A stretch of DNA of 52,556 nt from a virus (lineage: Duplodnaviria > Caudoviricetes), in IMG/VR virus record IMGVR_UViG_3300036829_000111, positions 1-52,556 of that record; one strand, 5' to 3'. Below are positions 4,334 to 48,078 of the stretch, piece by piece; position 1 is the stretch's first letter; every line of letters begins with the position of its first letter. The notes below the pieces were generated by a model. That model had not been told where the DNA came from. It saw only the letters and a list, made by a program, of their open reading frames with translations, and made no database searches. The translations under genes and the position numbers were made by a program.

Positions 4334-4338
4334 CCGCC

Positions 4339-12495: not shown

Positions 12496-12516
12496 CACCC
12501 GTGTGACAATGCGAGG

Positions 12517-28751: not shown

Positions 28752-28973
28752 CTACCGCGGCAGGTCGAACTCGCCGTTCTTGGCGCCCCCCAGGAAGGCG
28801 GCCCACTCGTCCGGCGTGAAGGCGAGCACGGGCCCGCGGCCCTTGTCCTTGGAGTCCCGCACGCCGATAGCGTCACCGGTTATCGCGACCTCGACGCAGG
28901 TCTTGTCCGAGCAGCTGCCCGCCGTACGGAACGGGACGCCTTCCAGCGCTGCTTCCAGTGCCTCGCGGTTCAT
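28752..28973 (-). CDS. DUF397 (BldB/Scr2-like) protein
   Basis: CVEVA...GVRDSKD...PVLAFTPDEWAAFLGGAKNGEFD. Confidence 0.95.
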   Translation of the reverse strand: MNREALEAALEGVPFRTAGSCSDKTCVEVAITGDAIGVRDSKDKGRGPVLAFTPDEWAAFLGGAKNGEFDLPR

Positions 28974-29515
28974 ACCGCCTCCTTCATTCCCAGTGATGTG
29001 AGATAGTCCGCCAGCGGGACGGAATGCCGCATGGCGAGGTCGCGTATGCGCCGGTAGTGCCTGATCGTGTGCGAGTCCGAGGCAAGCTCCGCGCCTGTGA
29101 AGTCCCCGTCCTCGTCGTAGTCCATGAGCACCACTGCGCGATCATCGAACAGCCAGTAGTCGCGGCTCGGCAGCGACACGGCCGGATGGCGGTAGGGCGG
29201 CAGGATCCGCACGTCCTCCCCGGCATCCACGTTCGCCGGGTAGGCACAGGTGAGCTCGAATTGCAGGTAGTCACTCAGGGGTTCGTCGACGACATGGACC
29301 CGCGCCATCTGCTTCCCGTCGCTCAGCGAGGAGCGGACGAACTCCTGCCACGGTCCCCGCCAGGCCGGGTCCTGCGGCTCGCCGGCGAGGAACCGCCGGA
29401 ACGGCTCGGCCTCGTTCGCGGCGACGTACTGGTCCAGCAGCTCAAGCCGGAACGCCGACCGCTGGAACAGCGAGTCGAAGACCGCTCCGAACTCTTCTGG
29501 TGTTAGGTGCGCCAT
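28970..29515 (-). CDS. DUF6879-like protein
   Basis: FQRSAFRLELLDQY...RVHVVDEPLSDYLQFE...NVDAGEDVRIL...DYWLFDD. Confidence 0.85.
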   Translation of the reverse strand: MAHLTPEEFGAVFDSLFQRSAFRLELLDQYVAANEAEPFRRFLAGEPQDPAWRGPWQEFVRSSLSDGKQMARVHVVDEPLSDYLQFELTCAYPANVDAGEDVRILPPYRHPAVSLPSRDYWLFDDRAVVLMDYDEDGDFTGAELASDSHTIRHYRRIRDLAMRHSVPLADYLTSLGMKEAV

Positions 29516-29590
29516 GGTTTGTGCTCTCAGTTCGCTCAGTTCGGCTTTTCAACGCTAACGCGCGGAGAGCGCCCAGGGAAGACATCGGTA

Positions 29591-29638
29591 AGACTAGTCG
29601 CACATCCTCGCTATCTGTCTGCGACTACGGCGACTAGC
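29591..29638. promoter_or_regulatory. GCGACTAG-type operator cluster 1
   Basis: AGACTAGTCGC, GCGACTAC and GCGACTAGC in the divergent intergenic region. Confidence 0.6.
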
Positions 29639-29673
29639 ATCTACGGGGTAACCAGGATCTATCCACGTGCGAG

Positions 29674-30534
29674 GTGTTCCCGCTGATGATGCCGAGACAG
29701 CATCCGAGTGCCGACCGCCGCCGTCTCGCCGCGGCGCTTAAGGAACTGCGGGAAGACACTGGCATGTCTGCTGAGAGGTTCGGGGAGCCGCACGGCTGGT
29801 CTCAGGGCAAGGTCTCCAAGATCGAGAACGGCCGGACGGTCCCTTCCCGCGATGACGTCGAGACGTGGGCATCGACCGCAGGCCATCCTGAGCAAGGCCC
29901 GGCTCTCATCGCACTGCGCGACGCGGTAGCCACCCAGACGCGAGGCTATGCGGGACGCCGGGGAGCCACGCTCGCGGCCCGAGCAGAGGAGGCCGGCGTT
30001 GCAGAGTCGCTGGCGACGGTGACCCGGGTCTTCCAGCCGGCAATGGTCCCCGGCCTGCTCCAGACCGCGGAATACGCCCGGAACGTTCTCGAGATGATCG
30101 GCCGCCCCGAGGAAGAGATTGCACCCGCCGTCAACGCCCGCATGCAGCGCCAGGACGCCCTGTACCGGCCCGGCCGCCACTGGGAGTTCATGCTCACCGA
30201 GGGCGCGCTGCGCTGGCGGCCGGGCTCACGGCAGATGATGAGCGCCCAGTACGACCGGCTTCTGAGGGTGGCCGGCGTCGAAAGCGTCGAGCTCCGGGTC
30301 CTGCCGTTCGCACTCCAGGCGCCCACGTTCTACGACAACCCCTTCACCATCTATGAGATCCCCGACGACCCAGCAGTCCTCGTCGAGGGCACGCCCCTAG
30401 AGCAGTTCTGCCGCGACGAAAGCGACATCGAGGAATGCCGGACCTCGTTCGCGCGAGGCTGGGATGCCGCCCTCGCCGACGATGACGCCCTGCGCATGAT
30501 CGCCAGCCTTCAGCGCGAGCTCGACGGGGACTGA
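29674..30534 (+). CDS. XRE HTH + DUF5753 (WhiJ/Scr1-like) regulator
   Basis: RRRLAAALKELRE...WSQGKVSKIENG; VPGLLQTAEYA; ARMQRQ; LTEGALR. Confidence 0.95.
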   Translation: MFPLMMPRQHPSADRRRLAAALKELREDTGMSAERFGEPHGWSQGKVSKIENGRTVPSRDDVETWASTAGHPEQGPALIALRDAVATQTRGYAGRRGATLAARAEEAGVAESLATVTRVFQPAMVPGLLQTAEYARNVLEMIGRPEEEIAPAVNARMQRQDALYRPGRHWEFMLTEGALRWRPGSRQMMSAQYDRLLRVAGVESVELRVLPFALQAPTFYDNPFTIYEIPDDPAVLVEGTPLEQFCRDESDIEECRTSFARGWDAALADDDALRMIASLQRELDGD

Positions 30535-32927: not shown

Positions 32928-33521
32928 ATGCGCAGGTACCGCTATCGCCACCCCTACCGCCTGCACCGCGGCGGTGTTAACCCGCGCACGATTGCGGTCG
33001 CGGCGGGTGCTGTAGCGGTACTGGCCTGGATGCAAGCGCACCCGGGCACCGGGCACGCGGGCGAGTCGGCGGCCGGGATCGGCGGCAGGCACGCCACAAA
33101 GCCGCATCCGGCCTCCCCGTCGCGGGCAGCCCGGATCGCGGTCGCCTACGCCGAATCCAAGGTCGGCCGCGTCCCGTACGTGTGGGGCGGTGTCACCAAC
33201 GGGGGGATGGACTGCTCAGGCCTGACGTGGAACGCGTGGGGCGACGCCGGGGTGCACATCGCCCGCACCTCCCAGGACCAGTGGGCGACCGAGCACCGGG
33301 TCTCCAGCCCCGCAGCCGGGGACCTGGTGTTCTTCCCCGGCGTCGACGGAACTCCCTCGGCACCGGGGCACGTGGGGATCGTCACCGACCCGGCGAGGCA
33401 CCGGATGGTCGATGCCTACGGGGCTGGCACGCTCGTCCGTTACGACACGTACGGCTCGGACGCTTCGGCACCGGGGCTGTCCGCGGTCGTCGGCTTCACC
33501 GACCCGGCAGGAGGCGCGTGA
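32928..33521 (+). CDS. Exported NlpC/P60 peptidoglycan endopeptidase
   Basis: PYVWGG...DCSGLT...RTSQDQ...GDLVFF...GHVGIV; N-terminal hydrophobic segment. Confidence 0.95.
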   Translation: MRRYRYRHPYRLHRGGVNPRTIAVAAGAVAVLAWMQAHPGTGHAGESAAGIGGRHATKPHPASPSRAARIAVAYAESKVGRVPYVWGGVTNGGMDCSGLTWNAWGDAGVHIARTSQDQWATEHRVSSPAAGDLVFFPGVDGTPSAPGHVGIVTDPARHRMVDAYGAGTLVRYDTYGSDASAPGLSAVVGFTDPAGGA

Positions 33522-33808
33522 TGGGCACCCGTGCCGCGCTGGCCTGCGGGACCGTGCTGTCGTTCGCGGTCACCTGCGCATGGTCGTGGACGGCGGACGC
33601 GCTCGCGGGCCCGATTCCCGCGCCGCGCCTCGGCGCCGGCCTGCGTGCCGATTACGCACGGCTCGCCGACTCTGCCGCAGGCGGCCCGGGGATCGCGCTG
33701 TTCGCCGTCGTTGCCGCGATCTACGCGCTGTGCCTGTTCGTCTCCGGACTGCGGCGGATCCGCCGGGAGCAGGCCGCGAAGGAGCGAATGGCGGGTGATG
33801 AGCGGTGA
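33521..33808 (+). CDS. 2-TM membrane protein
   Basis: Two hydrophobic segments; coupled. Confidence 0.65.
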   Translation: MGTRAALACGTVLSFAVTCAWSWTADALAGPIPAPRLGAGLRADYARLADSAAGGPGIALFAVVAAIYALCLFVSGLRRIRREQAAKERMAGDER

Positions 33809-34332
33809 GGCGCTACACGACCCATTCCCGCTACGGGCGGCACGGCTCGAACAGGGACATGATCGTCGGTGTGGCGATCGGCCTCGTTGCGCTGGCCGGC
33901 GGCACGAAAACCGCGGTGACGGTGACTCATCACCACGCCTCTGCCCCTCACGTCGCCGCGGTCACCAGTGGCAGCGAGCGCGCGTTCATCCGCGCCACCC
34001 TCGCCGACCTCGGCGCCCCGGCCACGTCCGCGAACATCTACTCGCTCGCCGCGTGGTTCCCGCACGAGTACCCGAGCTGGCCGCCGTGGGCCGCCAACAA
34101 CCCCATGTCATCCACTTTGCGGATGCCCGGCTCGACCACCTACAACTCCATCGGCGTCCAGAACTATCCGACAGCCTCCGAGGGCGCGCATGCGACTGCG
34201 CTGACCCTCGCGAACGGCTACTACCCCCTGATCGTCGCCGCCCTGCGCTCCGGCCGGGGCCTGTGCGGCAACCCCAACCTCGCCGCCGAGTTCCTCGTGT
34301 GGTCCGGCGGCGGCTACAGAGGAGCGTGCTAA
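33805..34332 (+). CDS. Exported lysozyme-like cell-wall hydrolase
   Basis: TM segment, then LGAPAT...AW..HE...NNPMSSTL.MPGST.YNSIGVQNY...G..AT..TL.NG.Y..I..AL. Confidence 0.7.
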   Translation: MRRYTTHSRYGRHGSNRDMIVGVAIGLVALAGGTKTAVTVTHHHASAPHVAAVTSGSERAFIRATLADLGAPATSANIYSLAAWFPHEYPSWPPWAANNPMSSTLRMPGSTTYNSIGVQNYPTASEGAHATALTLANGYYPLIVAALRSGRGLCGNPNLAAEFLVWSGGGYRGAC

Positions 34333-34335
34333 CCC

Positions 34336-35241
34336 ATGTCAACCACTTCGCAGGACAGGATCCCAGAGCTGCGGGTGCGCCCCGGGGTCAGCAAGGCGGT
34401 CGTCTGGTCCGGGGTCGCGCTCGGCACGACCCTGGCGATCCTGGCCATGATGCACGGGGCGCGGCTGCACCTCGGCGGAATGCCCGCCCTCCCCGGCGCC
34501 GTCTTCGGCGTGCTTGTCGAGTGGGCGCTGTTCGTGGCCACGGCGATCCTGGCGGCCGAGATGACCCGCCGCCATCACAAGACGGCGGCCCGGTACGCGG
34601 CACAGCAGGGGAGCCGCGGCGCGTCCGCCGGAGGCCAGGCCCTCCGCAGGCACGCGCTCATGTTCCTCGACAAGTCAGCCGACTGGGCCGCCCCGCGGTG
34701 GCATGCCCGGACAGGCAGCACCCGCACGCCGGATGAGATCACGCAGCCGATTCCCTCGGCAGCACCCGCAAGCCCCTCCGCAGACAGCGCGGAGGTCAAT
34801 CCAACCGAAGGAGAAAACATGACGACACCGACACGCGGCCTTGTCAGCCGCATCAGCCCTGACCGGCGGGCGCAGCGCACCGCATCCCGCAGCGGCGCCG
34901 TCATCCCGGCGGAGTGGGGCCATGTGGTCACGCAGACCGCCGACTTCGACCCCGAAGACGACGGGCACCTGCTCGACTGGATGGGCGGGCAGGTCGCCGG
35001 CGTAGCCGCCTACGGGGAGGCGCTCGTCGAGGTGTACGAGGGCCTCACCCGCGACAAGGGGGCCGACCCCAAGGCCGCCGCCGCGATCCACGATGTCGCC
35101 GACGCCATCGCCCACGCCGCGGAGATGATGGCCGCCGCCAAGGCGAAGTTCTCCGAGCACTACGAACTGCCTCGCGAGTACGCCGCCAACGGCGGGCTCA
35201 TGACCCACGACGGCCGGTGGGTCACCGGCGAAGGCGACTAG
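34336..35241 (+). CDS. TraA-like transfer accessory protein (N-terminal TMs, C-terminal helical domain)
   Basis: Immediately upstream of traB; two TMs; internal RBS+ATG at 34819. Confidence 0.6.
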   Translation: MSTTSQDRIPELRVRPGVSKAVVWSGVALGTTLAILAMMHGARLHLGGMPALPGAVFGVLVEWALFVATAILAAEMTRRHHKTAARYAAQQGSRGASAGGQALRRHALMFLDKSADWAAPRWHARTGSTRTPDEITQPIPSAAPASPSADSAEVNPTEGENMTTPTRGLVSRISPDRRAQRTASRSGAVIPAEWGHVVTQTADFDPEDDGHLLDWMGGQVAGVAAYGEALVEVYEGLTRDKGADPKAAAAIHDVADAIAHAAEMMAAAKAKFSEHYELPREYAANGGLMTHDGRWVTGEGD

Positions 35242-35256
35242 CCCTCACCTACCGTT

Positions 35257-35286
35257 CCCGCCGCCGGGCACGCGCCCGGCGGCGGG
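35257..35286. other. Perfect 13-bp GC hairpin before traB
   Basis: CCCGCCGCCGGGC-ACGC-GCCCGGCGGCGGG, no U-tract. Confidence 0.7.
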
Positions 35287-35315
35287 GACCTGACCAGAAG
35301 CAGGAAGGAAGTTCA

Positions 35316-37616
35316 GTGGCCATACAGGCGCCGGAGCGATGGGCACCGGAGCGGCCGTGCCAGATCCCCGGGCACCCCCACGACGACGTCGGAGATGACG
35401 AGCGTCTGCTGCTCACCATGTCGCCGTGGCAGAGGTTCCGGTCATGGATCATGGCCGCGCCCGCTGAGCGGCTGCCCCTGCCCGCGTTCGTGACTGCGTG
35501 GCCCGCCACGGAGATCATGCACGCAGCCGGCGTCCCCGGCACGGTCCCCGCCTGCGCGACATGCGCCGCTACCGCCGCAGCGTGGCTGACCTGGTTCCGG
35601 CACCGGAAGGCATCCCCGCACCCGCGGCTCGCCCCCCTCGAGGCCGCAGGCGTCGCCGCCGCTGCCGGCGGATGGATCACCGCCGCCGACATGTGGGGCC
35701 CGCTCGGCTGGCCCGCCCACCTGCTCACCGGGATCTACCTTGCCGGGTCCGCCGGCGGGTACGCGTGGCTGCGCCGCCATGAGGCTGTCCTCGCCGCCCG
35801 CAAGCGCCGTGAAGACGCCGCTGCCGAGATCGCCGACAGGCGCCACTGGCATGGGGTGCTCCACCGGGCCGGCCTTGGCGGCTGGCACGTGCAGTGGCGC
35901 CGCGACACCAACCTCGGCGAGGAGCGGCTGATCACCACCAGCCCGGAGAACGCGTCCGCCAAGCAGATCGCCGCGAACAGCAGCAGGATCGCGGAGAAGC
36001 TCGAGCACATCCTCGGCCTGCCCTACAACCGGATCGACATCAGCACGACCGGCCAGCCGGGCCAGCTGATCATCGGTATCCGCACCGTGGACGTTTCGTC
36101 GCGGAGCGCCGCCTACCACCCGATGACGATGCCGTGGCCCGAGAGCAGCCCGTCCCCGTTCGCGGACTGGTTCCCGGAGACCGCCAGTATCCGCGACCCG
36201 GCCGTGTGGGGATTCTGCCCCGAGGACAGTTCCCCCCTGGCCGCCCAGCTGCTGAGCGACATCGGCGGCCGGGCCATCGGCGTGTTCGGCATGACCGGCT
36301 CCGGCAAGTCGTCCCTGCTGAACAACCTCCGCGAGTTCGTCACCCGATGCCCCGACGCCCGCATGGTGCAGCTGAACGGCGCGCACATGGGCGACGAGTT
36401 GTCCTGGGAGCCGCTGTCCGCGCTGACGCGATGCGGCCCGGTCGCCACCAACGAGAACGTCCGCAACGACATCGCCGAGATCCTGGAAGCGCTGCGCCTG
36501 CTCGTCACGAACCGGTCAGAGACCCTCGAGAAGACCGGGCATTCCACGTTCCAGCCCACGGAGAAAGATCCGGCCGTCGTCATCTTCATCGACGAGGTCG
36601 ACGAGATCGTCAAGTACGTCCCCGGGGCCGGAGATGCGCTGGATTTCCTCGCCGGCAAGCAGCGGAAATCGGCGGTTGCCCTGGTTCTCGCGACTCAGCG
36701 TGCCGTGATCAAGGCGATCGGCGGCGGTGCCGTGCGGGCGAACCTGAGCGAGGCCCTCGTCGGCAAGGTCGCTCGCGGCTCTGAATCCCGCCACGCGACC
36801 GGGGCGGAGAGCGAGCTGCCGGACATCCGCGAGTACAGCGGCGGGGCGCCCGGCTATTTCCAGACGTTTGACCCGCACTCAAACACCGTCACCGGACGGG
36901 GCCGGGCGTTCCTCCTCGGCGTGCCACCCGAGGAACTGGCCTACGTCAAGCGCCTCGTCGCGGCCCGCAGGCACCTGCGGGACTGGGGCATCCCCGACAT
37001 GCCGGAGATGGACCTGGACGGCGGCGAGGCGGTTGCTGAAGCCGCCGCGGGCGAGACGACGCGGGAAGTCGCCGGCCTGCGCGAACGGCTCGCCGCCGCC
37101 CGCGACAACGCCGCGGCACAGCCCGCGCCTGCAGCGGCCGCCAAGACGCAGCCGCCCGCGCAGGCTCCGACCTTCATCCCGGGGGTTCCGCAGCCTGTCG
37201 TACAGATGATGCTTCGGATGCTCGCCGCCCCGGACGGGGTGACCGCGGCGGCCTTCGGCGATGCCATCGGCAAGTCGAAGACCACGGCGTACGGGTACCT
37301 GAAATCAGCGGAAGACCGCGGAGTCGCCGTTCGCGACGGCAACTCGGTAGCGAGTCGTTACCGGCTCGCGACCCGTCGGCAGCCGGAATCCGTCCGGGAT
37401 CAGTCCGAGACGATGGAACCGGCCCAGACCCGGCCCGAGGGATACGTGACGCTGGAAGACCTCGCCGAAGAGGTACGCGACGGCCGGGTGGATGTCGATG
37501 ACGAGGCCCGCGCCGTATTGATGCAGGCGCTTCAACTCCGCGACCAGGCACCCGCGCGCCCGCATCTGACGGTCGTGCCGGACCCGGACCCGGAACCGGA
37601 AAGTGACGCACTGTGA
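35316..37616 (+). CDS. traB: TraB-like FtsK/SpoIIIE conjugative dsDNA translocase
   Basis: N-terminal TM helices, GMTGSGKSS Walker A, VIFIDEVDE Walker B, LATQRA motif, C-terminal wHTH; GTG start after GGAAGGA. Confidence 0.88.
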   Translation: MAIQAPERWAPERPCQIPGHPHDDVGDDERLLLTMSPWQRFRSWIMAAPAERLPLPAFVTAWPATEIMHAAGVPGTVPACATCAATAAAWLTWFRHRKASPHPRLAPLEAAGVAAAAGGWITAADMWGPLGWPAHLLTGIYLAGSAGGYAWLRRHEAVLAARKRREDAAAEIADRRHWHGVLHRAGLGGWHVQWRRDTNLGEERLITTSPENASAKQIAANSSRIAEKLEHILGLPYNRIDISTTGQPGQLIIGIRTVDVSSRSAAYHPMTMPWPESSPSPFADWFPETASIRDPAVWGFCPEDSSPLAAQLLSDIGGRAIGVFGMTGSGKSSLLNNLREFVTRCPDARMVQLNGAHMGDELSWEPLSALTRCGPVATNENVRNDIAEILEALRLLVTNRSETLEKTGHSTFQPTEKDPAVVIFIDEVDEIVKYVPGAGDALDFLAGKQRKSAVALVLATQRAVIKAIGGGAVRANLSEALVGKVARGSESRHATGAESELPDIREYSGGAPGYFQTFDPHSNTVTGRGRAFLLGVPPEELAYVKRLVAARRHLRDWGIPDMPEMDLDGGEAVAEAAAGETTREVAGLRERLAAARDNAAAQPAPAAAAKTQPPAQAPTFIPGVPQPVVQMMLRMLAAPDGVTAAAFGDAIGKSKTTAYGYLKSAEDRGVAVRDGNSVASRYRLATRRQPESVRDQSETMEPAQTRPEGYVTLEDLAEEVRDGRVDVDDEARAVLMQALQLRDQAPARPHLTVVPDPDPEPESDAL

Positions 37617-37752
37617 CCATGGAAGCGCGGTTGAGGAGGGGACGCGTACGCGACCCCCGGATTGAGTTCGGAAAGGCGTTCGGTTGTCTTGCTGAGCAGG
37701 GGTTTTGAACGGAAACGGAACGACAGTCGAATGGAAAACCGAACGGAAAACC
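37578..37752 (+). repeat. Candidate clt/TRS direct repeats at end of traB
   Basis: GACCCGGA x2 (37581, 37587), several co-oriented CGGAA, tandem GAATGGAAAACC/GAACGGAAAACC (37729-37752). Confidence 0.5.
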
Positions 37753-37756
37753 AGTC

Positions 37757-38476
37757 ATGACCGCTTACGAAGAGTCACCGTATGAGCGCGCCGAGACGCC
37801 AGATGAGGCCACGCGTGGCGATGCCCTGATGATTCCGCTGTCGCGCATGCTCACCGGCAGGCCTCACCCCCCTGTCGTCTACTTCGCCCGCATCGGCAAC
37901 ATCGTCAAGATCGGCACGACCACCAACCTCACGTCGCGCATGCGGTCGATGTATGTGTCGCTTGAAAACGTGCTGGCCGTGGTGCCTGGCGGCAGGGAAG
38001 AGGAGAGCGCCTACCACAAGCGCTTCAAGGCGAGCCGGGTCGAAGACACCCACGGGCGCGAGTTGTTCCACCTTGATCCGCAGTTGCGGCGCTTCCTGCG
38101 CCTCGGCCCAGAAAATCCCCAGGCGGACACGCTCAGGACGAAGGCCCGGCAGATGGGGAGGCGTCGCCCTGGCGCCCCCCAACGCAAGCAGTTTCTTCCC
38201 GTGGACGTGGCAATCCCGGTAGGGCCGTTCGCCGCCAACGATGCGCCCCCGGTGATGCGCGAGGTGCCCTCATATGTCATGGAGGTGCTGTGGCGGCTGC
38301 TCGCCAAGCCGGAAGGCACCACTGCGACCTATGTCGCCGCCGCCATCGGCACGTCCAAGACCGTCGCGTGGGAGTACCTGACCACACTCCGCGACCAGAA
38401 CATGGCAACACTGACCGGTGGCGGCCGAGGGGCGCGGTGGAGACGCACGAAGCCACCCGAGGAGCAAGCATCATGA
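37757..38476 (+). CDS. GIY-YIG (T5orf172/MUG113-like) nuclease domain fused to TraB-like wHTH
   Basis: VVYFARIGNIVKIGTTTNLTSRM...GGREEESAYHKRF...RELF; C-terminus aligns with the TraB wHTH. Confidence 0.82.
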   Translation: MTAYEESPYERAETPDEATRGDALMIPLSRMLTGRPHPPVVYFARIGNIVKIGTTTNLTSRMRSMYVSLENVLAVVPGGREEESAYHKRFKASRVEDTHGRELFHLDPQLRRFLRLGPENPQADTLRTKARQMGRRRPGAPQRKQFLPVDVAIPVGPFAANDAPPVMREVPSYVMEVLWRLLAKPEGTTATYVAAAIGTSKTVAWEYLTTLRDQNMATLTGGGRGARWRRTKPPEEQAS

Positions 38477-40416
38477 GCAGTTACGAGGACACGCTGTACT
38501 CGCGCGCCGAGCTGCTGGATGAGACCAGCGACCTCGCCGCGGAAGCGACGGAAGTGCTTGACGGTGCGGCCGCGACGGGCGTCGACCCGGCCGCCGTCAC
38601 CAGCCTGCGAGCAGCCGTCCGGGCGCTCGACCCCGCAGGCGGCACCCCCTCCTACCAGGAGCACCCCGGCGACAGCTACCACTCCGACATCGAGTTCCTC
38701 GAGGCCATCGTCGATGCCGAGGACCAGGTCCGCGAGCGGCTCCGCGACGCGGACAAGCTCCGGGGCGAGGCCGCCGAGGCGATGGACAAGGCCCAGGATG
38801 ACCTGGGACGATCCCGCCGCGACCTGCAGAACGCCCAGATGGCCCTCGCCGCCGCGATGGCGCTCCCCACCAAGGATCCCTGCAACGGCTGCCACTCCGC
38901 CAAGGCCGCCGCGATCATGCAGGCCGAACAGGAAGTCGCCGACGCCGAGCAGGCCATCGCGGATGCCGAGCGGCGCATCAGCACCCTCGGCGGCGCCCTG
39001 GAGATCCTCGACGAGCTCACCCGCAGGCTCACCGCCGCCATGAAGGCGCTCCGCCGGGTGCCCGCCGACCTGGGCGAGACCTACGAGCTGGTTGCCGAGT
39101 TCATCCGCCGCGGCGGGAAATTGACCCACGACGGCCGCTTCATCACCGGCGAAGGCGACATGCCAGTCGGCGGCCGCCGCCCAAAAGGCCAGGGGCGGCT
39201 GTGGAACGCCCGAAACGATCACCATGACAGGAGCAGCATGAACGGCACGCCGCCGGTCAACGGCACGCAACTGCGCTTCGGGAAACTGCCCATGGTGTGG
39301 CTTCCCGAGTCGCCCGCGCCCGCATCACAGTGGCCGCAGCAGGAAGCGCCGGCCGGACTGCCGGCGGAGGCGGAAAGCCCGGCAGAGCCGAAGCGGCGCT
39401 CGTTCACCCTCAGCCGCGGCCAGAAGACGCTCGCCGTCGCGATCCTCGTCCTGGCGCTCGCCGTCACCCCCGTGTTTTTCCTCGTCATGTTCCTGACCGT
39501 GAACGGGATGCTCGGCCCGTACTTCGACGGCTGGGCGTGGACGGTGCCGGTCGCGACCGAGACGACGTTCCTGCTGCTGTTCCTGCTGGCCGTCTTCATG
39601 GAGTGGGTGCGCAAGCCAAAGAAGCTGCTGTGGGTCGCCCCGCTCCCGTTCGGCGCCATGTCCGTGTTCCTGAACGTGTGGGCCTCGCACGACAGCGTCC
39701 CCGGCATGATGGGCCACCTCGCGGTGACCCTCGCGTTCTTCATCCCGGTGATGTTCGCGAAGTCCGCTGTCCGGTCCCTTCTCGTCACCGACGAGGAGCG
39801 GGCCCGCACCGTCGCGCTGGCCGACGCGCAGGCCCATGCCCGCGACATGCTCCGCTCCGGGCTCGGCATCCGGTGGCGGGCGAAGGCCCCGATGATGCTG
39901 CGCCGCCAGCTTCGCTCCGGACGCCTCCCGGCGCGGGTCCTCGAGGCCGTCAACACCGGCCAAGCGACCGCATGGGAGGACGCCGTGGAGACGTGGATCG
40001 CCGCCGCCGTGACCCTCCCGGAGCGCACCCGCGCGGTACTCGACGCGGCCCGCGCAGAGGCCTCCCGGAGCATGCCCGCAAGCACGCCGGAGACGCCCGC
40101 CGAGCCTGCCCCGGAGCCCGTCCCCGAGCCCGCTCCGGACACGCCCGCAGCCGTGCCTGAAGCACGCCCCCGGGCAAGCGCGAAGCGTGTCTCCAAGCCT
40201 GCCCTGAAGCTCACCGCAGCACGGTCCCGGAGCATGTCCCCGGCCGAGCTCGCCGCGAACGTCGAGGCCATGCTCGACGCCAACGGCGGGACCGTGTCCG
40301 TGAACAAGATCAAGGCCGACCTGAGCGTCGGCACGGACAAGGCCAAGACGGCACTGGAGATCGCCCAGCGGAACCGGGCGCGCGTCATCCCGATAGGGGA
40401 GCGGCGGCAGGCGTAG
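38473..40416 (+). CDS. Coiled-coil domain fused in frame to SpdB2/DUF2637-like 4-TM spread protein with C-terminal HTH
   Basis: Helical N-terminal half; internal RBS+ATG at 39238; four TM segments, PE-rich linker, VSVNKIKADLSVGTDKA HTH. Confidence 0.7.
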   Translation: MSSYEDTLYSRAELLDETSDLAAEATEVLDGAAATGVDPAAVTSLRAAVRALDPAGGTPSYQEHPGDSYHSDIEFLEAIVDAEDQVRERLRDADKLRGEAAEAMDKAQDDLGRSRRDLQNAQMALAAAMALPTKDPCNGCHSAKAAAIMQAEQEVADAEQAIADAERRISTLGGALEILDELTRRLTAAMKALRRVPADLGETYELVAEFIRRGGKLTHDGRFITGEGDMPVGGRRPKGQGRLWNARNDHHDRSSMNGTPPVNGTQLRFGKLPMVWLPESPAPASQWPQQEAPAGLPAEAESPAEPKRRSFTLSRGQKTLAVAILVLALAVTPVFFLVMFLTVNGMLGPYFDGWAWTVPVATETTFLLLFLLAVFMEWVRKPKKLLWVAPLPFGAMSVFLNVWASHDSVPGMMGHLAVTLAFFIPVMFAKSAVRSLLVTDEERARTVALADAQAHARDMLRSGLGIRWRAKAPMMLRRQLRSGRLPARVLEAVNTGQATAWEDAVETWIAAAVTLPERTRAVLDAARAEASRSMPASTPETPAEPAPEPVPEPAPDTPAAVPEARPRASAKRVSKPALKLTAARSRSMSPAELAANVEAMLDANGGTVSVNKIKADLSVGTDKAKTALEIAQRNRARVIPIGERRQA

Positions 40417-40487
40417 CCCGTCCGCGAGACTCCTGGCAAGCCGGGCCGGACACCCAGCCAGTACTCCCGAAGGAGAGCACCCACATT

Positions 40488-40640
40488 ATGTTCAACGCGC
40501 TTGTCATCGTGGCCATCGGCTTGTTCGTCGCGGTCTACGGCGCCGACCTCATCGCACCTGGCAACAGCGCGGTCCAGGTCGCGATCTTCGTCGTGTTCAA
40601 CGTCGGCGCCTACCTGGTCGTGCGTCGCCGCGACGCCTAG
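40488..40640 (+). CDS. Small 2-TM membrane protein
   Basis: Manual ORF MFNALVIVAIGLFVAVYG...; AAGGAG RBS. Confidence 0.65.
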   Translation: MFNALVIVAIGLFVAVYGADLIAPGNSAVQVAIFVVFNVGAYLVVRRRDA

Positions 40641-40755
40641 TCCTGACGGCCCCGAGGGCGCACGGCATCCGCGAGGGGACCGCGCGCCCGGCCGGGCACT
40701 CAGGCCGCCCGCCAACATCGTCGACAGCAACAACACCACGGAGGAGTAACCGATC

Positions 40756-41052
40756 ATGACCGACACCACCCAAGAGGCCACCCCGTCGGCTGACACCCGG
40801 GAGGGTGGCTACGCCTACCACTGGATCATCACCCTCCAGTACCGCAACAAGCACGGGCTGGCGGCAGCAACCCAAGACGGCACCCTCGGTACCACCTACA
40901 CCACGCGGGGCGACGCGCTCAAGGCCGTAATTGGCAGCGTGAAAAAGGCGCTCAGGATCGCCGCAGACGCCCAAGTCGTCATCCTGTTCTTCGCCCTGGA
41001 GCCGAACCGGTTGCCCGCTCCGGTTCAGGTCGCGTCCAGCGACGGCGACTAA
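40756..41052 (+). CDS. Hypothetical protein
   Basis: GGAGGAG RBS; YHWIITLQ...ILFFALEPN. Confidence 0.75.
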   Translation: MTDTTQEATPSADTREGGYAYHWIITLQYRNKHGLAAATQDGTLGTTYTTRGDALKAVIGSVKKALRIAADAQVVILFFALEPNRLPAPVQVASSDGD

Positions 41053-41167
41053 GCCCCGCGCCTGCGACCGGAAGGTCGCCTGCAAGACCCCGCTTTCGCG
41101 TTTAGGGCACCGACATCGTTTCCCCGTCTCGTTCGCATCATCCGCCCCGGTGCCCGATGATGATGCC

Positions 41168-41992
41168 ATGTCCCCTCGTGTCCCTTTCCCGTCCGGGTCT
41201 GACGGCGACCGCCCGTGTTCACAGGGAACCTGGTGCGCCTCCGCCATGACGAGCATCGAAGGCGAGCGCATCCCCGCCTACGGCCCGCGCGCCTTTTGCC
41301 CGGCCGACCGCGGCCGGATCGAGACGGCGCTCGCCGAACTGCCCGGGCAGTACGTGCACCTCGCCGCCGAGCTCGGCCAGCCCGCGCAGGGCAGCAGTAC
41401 GACCAGGTCGCCGTTCGGCCCGAAGATCCCGCTCCGCACCGGCATAGACGCCCTCATGCGGCTGTACAGCGAGGTGCTCACCTCGTGGCATGAGCGAGTC
41501 GCCGTGATCGCCCGGCTCACGCCGCCGCCGGATCACGTCCGCCCCGGCGTCGCCATCGCCCGCGCCGTCGACGTCCTCACGCCCCGCCTCGATGCCCTGC
41601 TCGCGCTGGAGCCGGAGCCGATGCGCCGCGCCGTCTCCCACCGGGAGCTGGAACTCCTCGGCGACGTCGACGGGATCGTCCGCCCCGGCTACGCCGCGAT
41701 CACCCCCGACCTCGACGGCGGAGACGCGGGCCTGGAGATCCTCGCCCTGCACCGCCGGTCCCGCGCGGTACTGGGGGAGACGCGCGAACGGCCCGTCGAG
41801 CTGCTCGGCGTGCCGTGCCGCGTCGAGGACTGCGACATGCTCGCGCTGCGCCGCGCCGAACTGCCGTCCGATCCGGACGAGGACCCGCCGTGGTCGGTAT
41901 GCGAATTTTGCGGAGATGTGATGAGCGAGGAGGAGTACCGCGAGTGGACGAAGCGGTACGCGAGGTGGGCGCGAGGACAGGAGGCGTCGTGA
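41168..41992 (+). CDS. Conserved actinophage protein with C-terminal Zn ribbon (possible late-gene regulator)
   Basis: N-terminal Cys motifs and PCRVEDC...VCEFCG; positioned before late genes; start uncertain. Confidence 0.7.
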   Translation: MSPRVPFPSGSDGDRPCSQGTWCASAMTSIEGERIPAYGPRAFCPADRGRIETALAELPGQYVHLAAELGQPAQGSSTTRSPFGPKIPLRTGIDALMRLYSEVLTSWHERVAVIARLTPPPDHVRPGVAIARAVDVLTPRLDALLALEPEPMRRAVSHRELELLGDVDGIVRPGYAAITPDLDGGDAGLEILALHRRSRAVLGETRERPVELLGVPCRVEDCDMLALRRAELPSDPDEDPPWSVCEFCGDVMSEEEYREWTKRYARWARGQEAS

Positions 41993-42198
41993 GACTTCCC
42001 GGGCAGTTCCGCCCCCGCCATACCTGCGAATGCCGCGACTGCGGCTCTCAGGGCAGCACGAGGCGCTGGCGCAAGCGGGTTGAACAGCGCGAGGTGCTCA
42101 CCGAGATTCAGGAAGCCATGTCCGAGCTCGGCCCCGACGCCGCGACACGCGCGGACATCGTCGCCAAGTGTGCTTGCTCGCAGGCCGAAATGCTGTAA
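41989..42198 (+). CDS. Small hypothetical protein
   Basis: GTGA overlap; CECRDC. Confidence 0.5.
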   Translation: MRLPGQFRPRHTCECRDCGSQGSTRRWRKRVEQREVLTEIQEAMSELGPDAATRADIVAKCACSQAEML

Positions 42199-42274
42199 CG
42201 TGGAGTCACCTGGAACAGTTGTCCCCTGGGAGCCTTGCGCACCCAGGGGATTTCGCGTATTTAGGGCGGTGGCC

Positions 42275-42526
42275 ATGTTCATCACCCGCGCGGATGGTTT
42301 CATCACCACCGAGCAGGCCGCCGAAATGGTCGGCAAGAAGCCCGGGACGATCCGTCAGTGGAAGTTCCGCGGCCATCTCGCCCCGGTCGGCCTGGACGAG
42401 CAGGGCAAGCCGCTCTACCGTCCCGCCGACGTGGGCCGCGCCGAGAAGACAGTCCGCGACAACGCCCTCCGCACTAACGGCACAGACCCTAGGCAGATGC
42501 GCGCGACGCTTCCCGAGGCGGCTTAG
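42275..42526 (+). CDS. MerR-like HTH DNA-binding protein
   Basis: ITTEQAAEMVGKKPGTIRQWKFRGHL...PLYRPADV. Confidence 0.85.
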   Translation: MFITRADGFITTEQAAEMVGKKPGTIRQWKFRGHLAPVGLDEQGKPLYRPADVGRAEKTVRDNALRTNGTDPRQMRATLPEAA

Positions 42527-42542
42527 ATCATGCCTTCGGAAA

Positions 42543-42551
42543 TGGTAGACT
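42543..42551 (+). promoter_or_regulatory. Putative late promoter (extended -10)
   Basis: TGGTAGACT in a low-GC intergenic stretch upstream of the late block. Confidence 0.45.
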
Positions 42552-42759
42552 GAACTGGGATTTCACCCATTCACCTGCCGCTTTCTCCCGATCGGTCGTC
42601 TCGTGCTGCATGCCCTCGCCATTGCTTCCGTCCTGCTCGCCGGCCCCGGCTGGCTCGGCATCGCCCTCGCCATCCGCGACGCCGCTGCCCGCGACGCTGA
42701 GCAGGCCATCCCTGAGCGCGATACGGCACGCGACATGAGGCTCGCAGCCTGACCGGGAG

Positions 42760-43101
42760 GTGTCCGTGACCGCTGCGCCCGCGCGCAAGCACCCGCGCAC
42801 GGTCCTCGCCATCACAGCCGCAGCCTGGACCCTCCTGTGGGTGACGCTCGGCTCCCTGTCCGACTGGGGCGCCTACTGGATCACATGGAGCGCGGCCGGC
42901 TTCTTGATCCCCGAGCTGTACGGCCTCGCGACCAACACCGCGGACACCCTGTCCCGCAACACGTGGGCGCTTGAGCACCTGGACTTCGGGCATCCGCTGG
43001 ACTTCGCCGAGTGGACGCCGCTGCACTATGCGATCGCGGTAGTCGTGTGGCTGCTGTTCCTGTGGCTGAGCGTACATATCCCGTTCGGCTGGCTGCGTTA
43101 G
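42760..43101 (+). CDS. Trp-rich membrane protein (about 3 TMs)
   Basis: Hydrophobic segments; GGGAGG RBS. Confidence 0.7.
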   Translation: MSVTAAPARKHPRTVLAITAAAWTLLWVTLGSLSDWGAYWITWSAAGFLIPELYGLATNTADTLSRNTWALEHLDFGHPLDFAEWTPLHYAIAVVVWLLFLWLSVHIPFGWLR

Positions 43102-43110
43102 ACTCGCCGC

Positions 43111-43422
43111 GTGACCGCCGAACTCGCCACCTGCGACGGCTCGCCGCCACCGCAGGGCCTTCCGCGCGGCGAGTGCATCATGACGAGCCTCGATGACGGA
43201 ACGATCCGCATCGACCACGCCGACCCGCGCATCCTCATCAGCGCCGAGGTGCTCGACGCCATCGTCGACGAGCGGCCGCCGCAAGCATCGCTTGACCTAG
43301 CCGGATGCACGACCTACGACGGCGCGGTACTGCGAATACACGGCGTCAACCGGACCATGGTCTACCGGATCACCGAATACGTCCCGTCCGTCCGCGGCTA
43401 CATCGCCGAATGGCCGGACTGA
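43111..43422 (+). CDS. Hypothetical protein
   Basis: Packed ORF, beta-rich. Confidence 0.7.
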   Translation: MTAELATCDGSPPPQGLPRGECIMTSLDDGTIRIDHADPRILISAEVLDAIVDERPPQASLDLAGCTTYDGAVLRIHGVNRTMVYRITEYVPSVRGYIAEWPD

Positions 43423-43434
43423 AGGAGCCAGCCC

Positions 43435-43614
43435 GTGCACGCTGACGGCCCGTACGAATACGACGTGGCCGACACCGGCAGGCTCACCAGCGACGAACGC
43501 AAGGCCCTGCTGAACCGCTTCGCCGCCGAAGGCTGGCAGCTGGACCACGTCGACGGCGTCCGCTACATCTTCAAGCGGCCGAAGCGTGACGCCACCACTC
43601 CGCGCGAACGGTGA
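43435..43614 (+). CDS. DUF4177-like small protein
   Basis: Manual ORF: YEY...LLNRFAAEGWQL...YIFKRP; AAGGAG RBS. Confidence 0.65.
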   Translation: MHADGPYEYDVADTGRLTSDERKALLNRFAAEGWQLDHVDGVRYIFKRPKRDATTPRER

Positions 43615-43906: not shown

Positions 43907-44167
43907 TCTCTCCGGTATCCCGGCTGCCGCCATCACGGAGACGCCACACCGCAGCGCGAGCCGGAAACCAAGCGGCAGTCACAGAACGTGACCAACCACT
44001 CAAATCGGTCGGGCCGCGACGGCGAACGATAGGGGGGGAGGGTACCGACGGCGGCCGGATGGCCTCCCTGACCCGCCGCACGCTTCTCGCAAAATGTACG
44101 GTTCACGCGATTCCGGAGGGTGGCCATCCGTCACCCTCCGCGCCATACCCCCTGACCGCATAGGGAG
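43907..44167. other. Probable cos/packaging-site region
   Basis: Non-coding gap between HNH and terS with G-run AGGGGGGGAGGG (44031-44042); call is by position only. Confidence 0.5.
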
Positions 44168-44575
44168 GTGACCGTGCCTCAGCCGCCTAAGTTCGAGCCT
44201 GCCAGGCGCAACGCACGGTCAGGTCCGGTCAGGCTCCCGGCCGAGGGACGGGAGGGCGACCCGCCGGAATGGCCGCTGGGCGGCCGTACTACGGCTGCGG
44301 AAAGAGCGGCCTGGGTCGACCTGTGGCGTACGCCGCAGGCGGTGGCCTGGGAGAAGCTGGGATGGACGCGGACAGTCGCCCGGTACTGCCGGGTCATGGT
44401 CGAGGCGGAGAAGCGTGACGCGACGCCGGCGCTCCTTGCGCAGGCGACATCCCTCGAGGATCGCCTGGGACTGACCCCGAAGGCGATGCGGCTGCTGTTG
44501 TGGGAGATCGTTTCCGATGAGGTGGCCGAGCAGCGGGCCGCCACCGACGTGCGGGCGCGGATTAAGGCGGTCTGA
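44168..44575 (+). CDS. Terminase small subunit
   Basis: W..LWRTPQAVAW...LEDRLGLTPKAM; coupled to terL. Confidence 0.88.
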   Translation: MTVPQPPKFEPARRNARSGPVRLPAEGREGDPPEWPLGGRTTAAERAAWVDLWRTPQAVAWEKLGWTRTVARYCRVMVEAEKRDATPALLAQATSLEDRLGLTPKAMRLLLWEIVSDEVAEQRAATDVRARIKAV

Positions 44576-46155
44576 TGCCGTGGCGCGGCCCGTCTGAGCC
44601 AGGGGAGTTCCCGACTCTCGGCTACGAGATCGGCGAGTGGATCGAGGCGCACGTCGTCATCCCGGACGGCTACCGCCGCGGGGAGCAGTACCTGCTGACC
44701 GATGAGATGTGGCGGTTCCTGCTGCGCTTCTACCGGATTGACGAGGCTGAACAGAGCCTTCGCTACTACGGCGGCCAGCTGCGCCGCTCGCAGAAGTGGG
44801 GCAAGGACCCGTTCGGCGCGGCGATCATCCTGGCCGAGGCCCTCGGCCCGGCGCGGTTCGACGGCTGGAATGCCAGCGGCGAGCCGGTCGGCAAGCCGTA
44901 CCCGACGCCGTACATCCCGTGCCTGGGGACGTCCGAGGAGCAGACGGACAACACGTATCTTCCGCTGCTGGACATGATCCGGCTGGGGCCGCTGGCCGAC
45001 CTGCCGGGCATGGACGCGGGGGAGACCCGGGTGAAGCTGCCGAACAGCGGCTCGATCGAACCGGTGACCGCCTCGGCGCGGGCGCGGCTCGGGCAGCGGA
45101 TGACGTTCGCGACCTTGACCGAATCGCACCTGTGGACGCTGCAGGGCGGATTCCGGCGCCTGGCCGGCGCAGTGAAGCGGAACATCGCGGGCATGGACGG
45201 CCGGTGGCTTGAGCTCACCAACGCGTGGGATCCGACCGAGGGCAGCGAGGCCCAGGTGACATCCGAGTCGGCCAACGACCGGGTGTACATCGACACGGTC
45301 GAGCCGCAGCGCGTGGAAGACCTTCAGGATGACGAGGCGCTGTACCGGGAGCTGCTGCGACAGTACGGGGACTCGGCGGCCGAGCGCGGCGGCTGGGTGA
45401 ACATCCGGGGCCGCATCATGCACGAGGTGCGCAGCGCCGCGCACCTTGAGGCGGACCGGCGCCGGTTCTTCCTGAACGAGATTGTCGTCGGCGAGTCGGT
45501 GTTCGTCGATCCCGTGCGCTGGGACCTGCAGGCACGCCCGGATGAGACTCTCGCGCCGGGCGAGCGTGTGGCGCTCGGGTTCGACGGATCGAAGTACCGG
45601 GACGCTACCGCGCTGGTGGCCTCGCGGAGGTCGGACGGGCGCCTGTTCGAGATCCGGATATGGGAGCGGCCGGAGGATGCCGGCCGGGACTGGCGCGTTC
45701 CCTCGGCTGATGTTGACCGGGTGGTGCGGGAGACGTTCGGCGCCTACGACGTTGCCGTGATGTTCGCGGACCCGTACCGCTGGCAGGACTACCTGGATGC
45801 CTGGGCGGTCGCGTTCGGCGCGGACCGGGTCGTGGAGTTCCCGACCAACCAGGAACAGCGGATGGACAAGGCGATCGAGCGGTTCACGACGGCGTTCGGG
45901 AACCTGGAGATCACGCACAGCGGCTCAGAGATGATGACGGGCCATTTCAAGAACGCCGTCGTGGTCAAGGGTGCCCGCAAGAAGCCGCGGCCCGGCGAGG
46001 AGCAGTCTCTCGCGACGCACTACCTGAAGATGGCCAAGCGCGGCGACGGAAAGCTCATCGACGCCGCTGTCGCCGGCGTCCTCGCGCATGAGGCACGGGC
46101 GTGGGCCGCTGAGCACGTCCCGGATGCCAGCGACCCGTTCGTCCTGTTCGGATAG
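44575..46155 (+). CDS. Terminase large subunit
   Basis: RSQKWGKDP P-loop, TNAWDP, LGFDGSKYRDATALV nuclease motif, IDAAVA. Confidence 0.95.
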   Translation: MPWRGPSEPGEFPTLGYEIGEWIEAHVVIPDGYRRGEQYLLTDEMWRFLLRFYRIDEAEQSLRYYGGQLRRSQKWGKDPFGAAIILAEALGPARFDGWNASGEPVGKPYPTPYIPCLGTSEEQTDNTYLPLLDMIRLGPLADLPGMDAGETRVKLPNSGSIEPVTASARARLGQRMTFATLTESHLWTLQGGFRRLAGAVKRNIAGMDGRWLELTNAWDPTEGSEAQVTSESANDRVYIDTVEPQRVEDLQDDEALYRELLRQYGDSAAERGGWVNIRGRIMHEVRSAAHLEADRRRFFLNEIVVGESVFVDPVRWDLQARPDETLAPGERVALGFDGSKYRDATALVASRRSDGRLFEIRIWERPEDAGRDWRVPSADVDRVVRETFGAYDVAVMFADPYRWQDYLDAWAVAFGADRVVEFPTNQEQRMDKAIERFTTAFGNLEITHSGSEMMTGHFKNAVVVKGARKKPRPGEEQSLATHYLKMAKRGDGKLIDAAVAGVLAHEARAWAAEHVPDASDPFVLFG

Positions 46156-46164
46156 GAGGCAGGC

Positions 46165-46320
46165 ATGGCGCTGACTGAGGGCACTCCGGGTGACTGGCAG
46201 CCGGGGAGTTACCCGGCCGCTGTCCATCTGGTGTACAAGGGCGATGACCGGGCGCCGATCCCCGTCGTGCACTGGCCGGCCGGTCCTGTGAAGCTCCCCG
46301 TCCCCGGGGAGGCGCAGTGA
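46165..46320 (+). CDS. Small hypothetical protein
   Basis: AGGAGG RBS; GTGA overlap with next gene. Confidence 0.55.
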   Translation: MALTEGTPGDWQPGSYPAAVHLVYKGDDRAPIPVVHWPAGPVKLPVPGEAQ

Positions 46321-46553: not shown

Positions 46554-46577
46554 CGGAACTGCGCGGCGGGAGGGCTG

Positions 46578-48044: not shown

Positions 48045-48078
48045 TGTTGCCTAGCACCCTGGGAGGTCGCGGTGCCCG

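Follow-up and report, generated by a model that had tools for sequence, protein, structure and literature searches.

The window studied here is the whole of the IMG/VR virus record IMGVR_UViG_3300036829_000111, a stretch of 52,556 nt with about 70% G+C, which is classed as linear and has an estimated completeness of 63%. Between a gene for a TraB-like membrane DNA translocase (traB) and a gene for a Spd-like protein (spd), it carries an open reading frame (ORF) for a two-domain protein, whose N-terminal part is a domain of T5orf172/GIY-YIG type and whose C-terminal part is a winged helix homologous to the C-terminus of the TraB-like neighbour. The analysis establishes the architecture of this protein, its homologies, the recurrence of the pairing, the presence and absence of the gene, a replaced segment around it, and a co-variation of recognition-helix class with repeat motif; together these suggest an optional cassette which may encode a site-directed nuclease aimed at elements of another specificity class. 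We call the protein the nuclease and its DNA-binding part the reader. Its residues are numbered in the 215-aa form that begins with MIPLSR (37829), and 24 is to be added for the 239-aa ORF. Labels with L stand for relative loci and those with P for homologous proteins, while G001 is the full record of the viral-contig locus L077. The features of the locus are as follows.

35316-37616, plus strand: TraB-like membrane DNA translocase gene; start uncertain (35316-35451), the collection's own call P0018 starting at 35451
37162-38451, plus strand: segment replaced relative to L077 (TraB winged helix and tail, spacer repeats, nuclease gene), from a per-100-nt identity profile
37164-37364, plus strand: TraB winged helix with recognition helix SKTTAYGYL, aligned to the nuclease winged helix
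37591-37751, plus strand: candidate array of clt-like repeats (CGGAA six times, AACGGAA three times, CGAA[TC]GGAAAAC twice at a 12-bp period)
37638-37657, no strand: near-palindrome GGGGACGCGTACGCGACCCC just after the traB stop, 13-nt arms, 92% complementary
37757-38476, plus strand: nuclease ORF, long form of 239 aa, from the ORF translation
37757-37828, plus strand: degenerate second copy of the spd-like gene's 5' end (MTAYEESPYERAE against MSSYEDTLYSRAE), sharing the reading frame of the nuclease ORF
37829-38476, plus strand: core of the nuclease gene, 215 aa; its stop overlaps the spd-like start codon (ATGA)
37874-38098, plus strand: T5orf172/GIY-YIG-type domain, from Pfam; Y18, K27-I-G29, R37, E59, H63 and E78 conserved
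38114-38257, plus strand: low-confidence linker (pLDDT, the predicted local distance difference test, 45-66 over residues 95-140), longer than in the four full-length homologues
38258-38458, plus strand: C-terminal winged helix of the nuclease with recognition helix SKTVAWEYL, from alignment, model and structural search
38473-40416, plus strand: gene for the Spd-like large membrane/coiled-coil protein, directly after traB in relatives

Architecture of the nuclease and its neighbour

An earlier note on this DNA, made from the letters alone, had quoted a peptide of TraB and one of the nuclease; both are found in the translations, and the 19 identities in 39 residues are confirmed by a second hand count. 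BLASTP of the nuclease ORF against TraB gives one ungapped segment with 26 of 67 residues identical (39%) and 39 of 67 positive (E 6e-11 as a single comparison), which aligns ORF residues 163-229 with TraB residues 612-678 (numbered from 35331), that is, nt 38243-38443 with nt 37164-37364. Against the window's own record the nuclease protein matches itself and this TraB segment only (E 1.6e-10). The two recognition helices do differ, as had been noted, being SKTTAYGYL in TraB and SKTVAWEYL in the nuclease.

The assignment of the N-terminus to T5orf172 holds, with 22.4 bits against a cut-off of 20 for Pfam PF10544 (E 1.8e-4, residues 48-108 of the 239-aa ORF); relatives of the nuclease score 25-32 bits, and MUG113 lies slightly below its cut-off of 22.3 with 22.1 bits. 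In an alignment of 66 related domains K27, I28, G29, L34, R37, E59 and E78 are invariant (66/66), and Y18, N33 and H63 are at least 90% conserved. By hhalign, Y18, R37, E59 and H63 fall on Y127, R148, E180 and H184 of Odn from phage ICP1 (E 3.9e-4), so that residues equivalent to catalytic ones, whose absence would have spoken against a nuclease, are present. The four full-length homologues P0002-P0005 all begin at MIPLSR (37829), and the first 24 codons of the long ORF may therefore be untranslated.

The AlphaFold model of the nuclease has a mean pLDDT of 84.7, with values above 90 for residues 145-210, and comprises two confident domains joined by a disordered linker. The C-terminal domain is confidently a winged helix, since the VIA structural search returns ArsR/MarR/IclR-type domains with Z 8.0-8.4 and a root-mean-square deviation of 2.0-3.2 Å over 61-76 residues. 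As the whole-protein model gave structural matches to winged helices only, the N-domain was refolded alone (pLDDT 84.2). GIY-YIG domains then came out on top, with weak scores: the top seven Foldseek chains are GIY-YIG domains of UvrC (E 0.12-0.6, template modelling score 0.35-0.40), and VIA ranks 2-4 and 6-9 are Slx1, HIGLE, I-TevI, EndoII, PD-T4-3 and UvrC (Z 2.9-3.6), among them 1ln0 (I-TevI) with Z 3.0.

The T5orf172 subfamily is very large, with 58,558 cluster representatives at E<=1e-3 and 16,119 at E<=1e-10. Among the best 150 of the 58,558 the domain is mostly C-terminal, behind 60-250 residues of other sequence (P0198-P0342), and these N-terminal parts may be further captured readers.

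As for the neighbour, the window TraB shows weak AAA and FtsK/SpoIIIE-like matches, and a profile of nine TraB homologues matches the TcpA-type coupling protein 6o1w (E 2.2e-9) and FtsK 2ius (E 2.9e-7). The Pfam FtsK_SpoIIIE cut-off is not reached by the window TraB, and the clade of TraBs with Xis-like tails described below also stays under it. The C-terminus of the TraB orthologue in L003 matches HTH_IclR at E 1.2e-6. A tblastn search with TraB gave no match at E<=1e-3 in 72,556 PLSDB plasmids or 50,697 GenBank phage records; "TraB-like" is therefore a label of architecture and context, and membership of the family is not demonstrated.

Recurrence, the replaced segment and specificity classes

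Relatives of the nuclease were collected by scans with a family alignment, giving 56 metagenome loci, 18 genome-contig loci and 15 viral-contig loci, and a word-based protein search gave four full-length homologues; the scans of genome contigs and viral contigs returned no close relative of the full-length nuclease. For TraB, single proteins served as scan queries, since the diversity of the nine-sequence alignment ruled out a pattern scan. At least 293 TraB homologues of the winged-helix type were found in metagenomes and metagenome-assembled genomes (MAGs), besides at least 60 of the Xis type, and helix classes were read from the 120 that were listed; with the window TraB as query, no match was found in genome contigs.

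The fusion is found in other genomes, and the proposed search for nuclease-plus-reader genes beside traB was rewarding. The TraB profile matches in 13 of 75 loci, always in the ORF directly upstream of the nuclease gene; as the 75 loci were found through the nuclease, this fraction is no measure of how often TraB genes have such a partner. Where the tail of a nuclease relative is 40 aa or longer, a paralogue of the tail lies in the same locus in 13 of 31 cases, and among further viral-contig relatives in one of three (L080, 70% over 76 aa, E 3e-32). Counted by locus, homology of the nuclease tail to a neighbouring protein is seen in eleven metagenome loci and one viral contig, L080. BLAST clustering sorts the tails into unrelated types, and for four of these the matching partner is the C-terminal part of the TraB/FtsK-like ATPase encoded immediately upstream. 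The winged helix is found in the window and L003, and a Xis/MerR-like tail in L008/L012, L010/L011 and L014-L017, where L010/L011, L008/L012 and L014/L015/L016 are near-duplicates. The third type is that of L037, whose partner alone passes Pfam FtsK_SpoIIIE (27 bits, cut-off 24), and the fourth that of L080, whose upstream ATPase reaches hhalign E 0.012 against the TraB profile, has no Pfam match, and is called TraB-like solely from Walker A/B-like motifs and hydrophobic N-terminal stretches in its translation. Small non-ATPase proteins are the tail partners in L052 and L053, and neither the L004-type tail (L004, L005, L007, P0010-P0014) nor that of L013 significantly matches its own upstream TraB. 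The homology of tail and neighbour within single loci ranges from E 1e-5 to 1e-32, and its recurrence across tail types means that the domain sharing is not due to chance; it has arisen with at least four unrelated reader types.

Two further arrangements were seen. The protein P0289 (674 aa) joins in one polypeptide a TraB-like ATPase, a Xis-like DNA-binding domain and, at the C-terminal end, T5orf172; it reflects either a natural joining of the two adjacent genes or a read-through in a single assembly, and it hints that ties of translocases to nucleases may reach beyond the nuclease family studied here. The 3.6-kb contig of L008 holds two T5orf172-family genes (538-1062 and 2261-2944), of which only the first has a tail matching the upstream TraB.

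The clearest view of the gene as an optional one comes from L077, whose TraB is 77% identical in protein to the window TraB. In DNA the two loci share 83-99% identity per 100 nt across traB (35175-37073) and 63-88% in the gene upstream, then the identity falls to 50-56% over 37162-37552, the TraB winged helix and tail, the nuclease gene is all gap, and 78-94% is resumed from 38452, in spd. L077 has traB, a 133-bp spacer and spd, with no nuclease gene between them; G001, which is complete with terminal repeats (83.6 kb), contains no T5orf172 N-domain, and its sole match to the nuclease protein is the TraB winged helix. Three loci of actinomycete MAGs found through a TraB homologue (L096, L097, L099) have the same order of traB, spacer and spd without the nuclease. 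The gene is thus present in 0 of 4 loci found through TraB, L098 being left out as incomplete, and four full-length nuclease homologues stand against at least 293 TraB homologues. In L077, L096, L097 and L099 the spd homologues, 53-58% identical, directly follow the repeat array. In the window, 37757-37828 duplicates the 5' end of spd with about 73% identity in DNA (hand count over about 55 aligned bases), so that the insert is bracketed by two copies of the spd start; this piece looks like an insertion scar, whether it is translated or not. The nuclease gene thus appears to lie outside the core transfer machinery, as an optional cassette at the traB/clt/spd junction.

According to the excerpts of PMC4447253, clt regions hold 8-bp direct repeats which are read by the cognate TraB, and candidates for such sites were sought in the spacers downstream of traB. 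In the window spacer the CGGAA array, weaker than those of L003, L077, L096 and L097 described next, has a density of 6 per 200 bp that no other part of the window reaches, and the near-palindrome GGGGACGCGTACGCGACCCC in it holds the GGGACGC box common to relatives. The clearest clt-like array is that of L003, between traB and the nuclease gene (1741-1835), where six exact copies of GGGACGCA, two inverted and then four direct, lie within 95 bp at 11-13 bp spacing (0.19 expected; six copies reached in 0 of 200 shuffles); the spacer downstream of traB in L077 has two copies. CGAACGA is the top strand-merged 7-mer of the traB-spd spacer in L077 (3 copies), L096 (6) and L097 (5), and all or nearly all of its copies in these loci lie in that spacer, whereas the window spacer has none and no 150 bp of the 52.5 kb has more than one. 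The TraB helices of the three loci are SKTVAFEYL, SKTVAYEYL and SKTVAYEYL, respectively, so the nuclease helix SKTVAWEYL would belong to the class tied to CGAACGA arrays, which its carrier is without. Since both the TraB reader and the spacer repeats change between the window and L077, they behave like a specificity module.

The spacers of L096 (5239-5380), L097 (5317-5468), L099 (5260-5469) and L077 (7248-7380) have a common layout with differing repeat motifs, namely about four direct repeats at about 11-12 bp spacing and then two inverted copies; ahead of spd, after the repeats, L096, L097 and L099 have a GTCCCCTCC box, and L077 has GGGACGCA there instead. The L077-type motif CGCGAACGAA was discarded for the window, where five one-mismatch matches stand against 6.5 expected and none is near traB. 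The motif GACCCGGA, which we take to be the pSVH1 TraB site, occurs 21 times in the window (4.8 expected; 0 of 100 shuffles reach 21). Its copies are spread over the record, and of its tandem pairs at 19265-19278 and 37581-37594 the latter lies in traB coding sequence, so it was rejected as clt evidence; the excess may be due to codon usage, and a literature search on the motif gave unrelated papers only.

Whose reader the nuclease carries can be asked of the TraB homologues themselves. A recognisable helix motif is present in 108 of the 120 listed and falls in discrete classes, including SKTVAYEYL (17), SKSRAADYL (14), SKSRAGDYL (11), SKSAAHRYL (10) and SKTVALEYL (8); the window's own SKTTAYGYL occurs once among the 120 and SKTTALGYL three times. 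With the winged helices of P0051, P0113 and P0123 that of the nuclease shares 58-60% identity, and with that of its own TraB 40% over 60 aa, so "near-copy" of the neighbour, as it had been described, is too strong. That of L003 is 74.6% identical to P0123 and 50.8% to its own TraB. On the tree the nuclease winged helices lie near the SKSSA[H/L]DYL TraBs. In the Xis-like clade, 46 TraB tails form two well-supported groups; the nuclease tails of L014, L016 and L017 all fall in one, and their three neighbouring TraBs all in the other, with best foreign matches of 69-89% against 51-59% to the own neighbour, which ranks 45/48, 39/47 and 15/48. The L010 tail matches the L008/L012 TraB better than its own, and that of L013 matches the L008/L012 TraB with no significant match to its own. 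The tail is thus closer to foreign TraB alleles than to the neighbour's in the window, L003, L010, L013, L014, L016 and L017.

Two narrower proposals were dropped. A nuclease reader copied from the L077 TraB would account for the recognition helix (8 of 9 residues), but the whole domains are only 35.6% identical. Repeated capture within the winged-helix class disagrees with the tree, where the five nuclease winged helices form one clade (support 40); in the Xis-like clade the nuclease tails are split in the tree, yet the approximately unbiased (AU) test does not reject one clade (p 0.13). Repeated capture is therefore claimed only at the level of unrelated tail types.

Setting of the module in the window

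In the left half of the window, on the minus strand, lie genes for a DnaB-like helicase, a second helicase, a methyltransferase and a single-strand annealing protein. The right part, on the plus strand, has an NlpC/P60 hydrolase, two further genes, the TraB-like ATPase and the nuclease ORF, followed by the 648-aa Spd-like protein, a phrog_1568 DNA-binding protein, the small and large terminase, the portal and a protease/zinc-ribbon/capsid fusion. The last is one 1052-aa ORF (48055-51213) with a prohead serine protease (Peptidase_S78), a double zinc ribbon and an HK97-type major capsid domain. A transfer/spreading-type module in the Streptomyces style (NlpC/P60, TraB-like pump, Spd-like protein; 32928-43614) is thus set within a phage-like genome, with phage genes at 1-20000 and 44156-51213 (DnaB helicase, annealing protein, terminase, portal, capsid), and G001 contains the same NlpC/P60-TraB-Spd-type module in its complete genome. 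The element may be a phage that perhaps also moves its own DNA between hyphal compartments. Despite the 83-99% DNA identity in the TraB module, G001 has no homologue of the window's large terminase at E<=1e-3, and the two genomes are mosaics.

The window also has a divergent pair, with DUF6879 at 28970-29548 on the minus strand (E 1.8e-58) and an HTH_31/DUF5753 regulator at 29638-30534 on the plus strand (E 3.2e-40). No sigma-70-like promoter and no intrinsic terminator came up in 37400-38600, nor any tRNA in the window as a whole; a known defence system is unsupported, as PADLOC gave weak matches only (PDC-S57, E 4.5e-4).

Possible roles and comparison with known systems

From these features we infer DNA binding, cleavage, the target class and the biological outcome as follows. 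A T5orf172 catalytic domain of the GIY-YIG superfamily, a flexible linker and a TraB-family winged helix would together make a two-domain site-directed endonuclease; the winged helix would bring it to the short clt-like repeat arrays just downstream of traB genes, and the catalytic domain would cut the DNA near the bound array. The cassette would travel with its own allele of TraB winged helix and repeats, and its reader in the window most likely matches a specificity class other than that of the neighbouring TraB; the carrier would then be spared and related elements of the other class cut, with rival exclusion, or homing of the cassette together with the linked specificity module, as the outcome. 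The chance that the protein is such an allele-specific, site-directed nuclease of rival-directed or homing type, with clt-like sites of another, foreign class as its target, we put slightly below even. Of the three roles proposed earlier, attack on rival elements with a different clt fits best, given the absence from close relatives, the foreign-like reader and the CGAACGA class, non-self targeting itself being putative.

Several results weigh against this reading. The own TraB ranks mid-field among TraB winged helices (54/111 for the window, 53/111 for L003), and the five nuclease winged helices form a single weakly supported clade, so that an old duplication with drift explains part of the pattern. 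Because L014 and L016 are close relatives, the Xis-like split represents two independent lineages only, and a mismatch of class is expected by chance about a quarter of the time. In L080 (70%) and L008/L012 (62%, 56%) the tail is close to that of its own neighbour, and together with P0289 these point to self-directed action in some lineages. The L077 TraB resembles the nuclease reader in its helix and not over the whole domain. As 42% identity sufficed for shared specificity in Odn, 40% to the neighbour is compatible with shared specificity here. L003 has both the nuclease gene and a strong array, and L099 combines the helix SKTVALEYL with the motif CCGGGCG (4 copies), so that helix class does not fully predict repeat motif; the middle helix residue may matter, or the link between helix and motif may be imperfect. 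For the N-domain, the hhalign probability against Odn is just 36%, and the match to GIY-YIG folds is weak in Foldseek (best E 0.12) and VIA (Z 2.9-3.9). The weakest links are the small number of independent lineages and the lineages tied to the neighbour's own reader.

These same lineages bring up the reading of a self-directed enzyme, which would bind clt on its own element and nick or cleave that site to supply the hexameric TraB with an end or a relaxed substrate, as an accessory "relaxase substitute" for the transfer of double-stranded DNA. The position of the gene between traB and spd, with its stop overlapping the spd start codon, would suit this, and so would the homology of tail and neighbouring reader, which only the L004-type and L013 lack among the TraB-adjacent loci, the high identities in L080 and L008/L012, and the joining of TraB, DNA-binding domain and T5orf172 in P0289. 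For their transfer, however, small Streptomyces plasmids need no more than traB and clt, neither the complete close relative nor any of the four TraB-found loci has the gene, the homologue counts differ as given above, the tail is nearer to foreign alleles in the loci listed, and the window spacer is without the motif tied to the nuclease helix class. We consider self-directed processing improbable on the whole. The absence from all TraB-found loci and the counts of four against at least 293 mean that the opening of DNA for translocation, another of the roles proposed earlier, cannot be a core step, and it survives as a minority rival through P0289 and L080.

A domesticated protein that binds TraB-type sites without cutting, with T5orf172 as a scaffold, could regulate the spd operon or compete with TraB loading as a kil-kor-like brake. 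CapR offers a precedent (excerpts of 10.1101/2020.11.28.402263 and PMC10448857), the repeats lie directly upstream of both the nuclease gene and spd, and no GntR-type TraR/KorA was identified next to traB among the selected ORFs scanned. We think this quite improbable, as the catalytic-equivalent residues, including the one aligned with Odn E180, are invariant in 66 of 66 domains, and a gene so sporadically present looks more like a selfish cassette than like a regulator that the element needs. That a common phage gene of GIY-YIG type simply landed by traB, the two proteins sharing a generic winged helix, gains from the size of the N-domain subfamily, whose 58,558 representatives mostly have other extensions, from the finding that just 2 of 145 representatives compared, new entries among the best 150, have a part matching a TraB homologue, and from relatives without this tail in 74 actinophage records and 8 Streptomyces plasmids. 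It has to face the pairwise E of 6e-11, the homology of tail and neighbour in four unrelated tail types beside TraB/FtsK-like ATPases, and nuclease winged helices that nest inside the diversity of TraB winged helices with up to 75% identity; such a coincidence is already strongly disfavoured and hardly credible to us. These four estimates leave a remainder for other functions.

In a wider scenario, a large family of actinobacterial phage-like elements would use a Streptomyces-style TraB/clt/Spd system, in which the specificity of reader plus site exists as discrete alleles that can be swapped, and a T5orf172 nuclease that has repeatedly captured readers (at least four types) would cut rival clt, drive allele swapping and copy itself with the linked TraB reader and clt into the victim; as a whole this is conceivable, though unlikely. 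If this scenario is true, the nuclease would be the first one tied to relaxase-free conjugation of double-stranded DNA, with homing or exclusion aimed at a transfer origin and not at a replication origin. A nuclease that reads TraB-type sites would help to define those sites in a large uncultured family, and would inform on the origin and exchange of specificity classes and on conflict and invasion among mobile elements in mycelial actinobacteria. The Odn principle would also be carried beyond a single pair of Vibrio phage and satellite, to another phylum and another cis function, which would suggest that reader capture by T5orf172 genes is general. TraB-type conjugation moves double-stranded DNA without a relaxase, and we know of no nuclease that acts at clt.

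In enzymes of the I-TevI type, an N-terminal GIY-YIG-type catalytic domain is joined by a flexible linker to a C-terminal DNA-binding domain of helix-turn-helix type, and cutting takes place at a distance from the bound site, so the carrier could be immune if the insert separates the two sites. The window nuclease has the same domain order and linker; it differs in being of the T5orf172 subfamily, with K-I-G for Y-I-G, in not being intron-encoded and in its weak structural match.

The free-standing T5orf172 homing endonucleases, as described in the excerpts of PMC10448857, adjoin essential genes, mark the borders of exchanged regions and trade DNA-binding domains with other genes. Likewise, the window gene is sporadic between conserved essential-type genes and lies at an identity break, and DNA-binding domains are exchanged with non-endonuclease genes; the reader here differs in deriving from the neighbouring gene family itself. 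A presence/absence polymorphism at one site between close relatives, as is typical of homing endonucleases, is found between the window and L077. CGAACGA arrays occur in endonuclease-free loci and not in the window, and L003 keeps a strong array, the cleavage site being putative.

With the Streptomyces TraB/clt/Spd system, as far as the excerpts of PMC4447253 present it, the locus shares a putative membrane FtsK-like ATPase whose C-terminus would read short direct repeats beside traB, Spd-like and cell-wall hydrolase genes alongside, and arrays (in L003, L077, L096, L097 and L099); unlike it, the window TraB has no PLSDB match, and the genome around the module is phage-like, with genes for terminase, portal and capsid. 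CapR of the Vibrio cholerae satellite PLE, a domesticated homing-endonuclease relative acting as a repressor (excerpts of 10.1101/2020.11.28.402263 and PMC10448857), is likewise a relative of T5orf172 endonuclease DNA-binding domains and a DNA-binding regulator, but it would imply no cutting, whereas catalytic-type residues are invariant in the family of the window nuclease.

The closest parallel is Odn (gp88 of ICP1), which in the excerpts of PMC8263062 combines T5orf172 with a DNA-binding domain 42% identical to RepA_N of PLE, cuts the origin bound by RepA, is credited with driving the swapping of RepA_N/ori modules, and has E180A as the mutant predicted to abolish catalysis. In both cases T5orf172 is joined to a reader homologous to a repeat-reading protein (42% in Odn, 40-75% here), the imitated reader comes with its cis site as a module of discrete, exchangeable alleles, and the residue aligned with the catalytic E180 is kept in the window nuclease (E59). 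The reader is N-terminal in Odn and C-terminal here, and it mimics a replication initiator there and a TraB/FtsK-like DNA translocase here; the gene of Odn lies in the antagonist phage, the present one beside a homologue of the mimicked gene in the same kind of element and in another host phylum. The logic of the rival-directed reading would be that of Odn and of the free-standing T5orf172 homing endonucleases. Our literature search found no publication joining TraB with T5orf172, or TraB, Streptomyces or clt with GIY-YIG, and no nuclease partner of TraB systems. The earlier remark that no example had been described holds for TraB readers within that search and has to yield as regards the design principle: a nuclease with a borrowed reader is already known from Odn (PMC8263062, in excerpt), and what is new is the version with a TraB-type reader.

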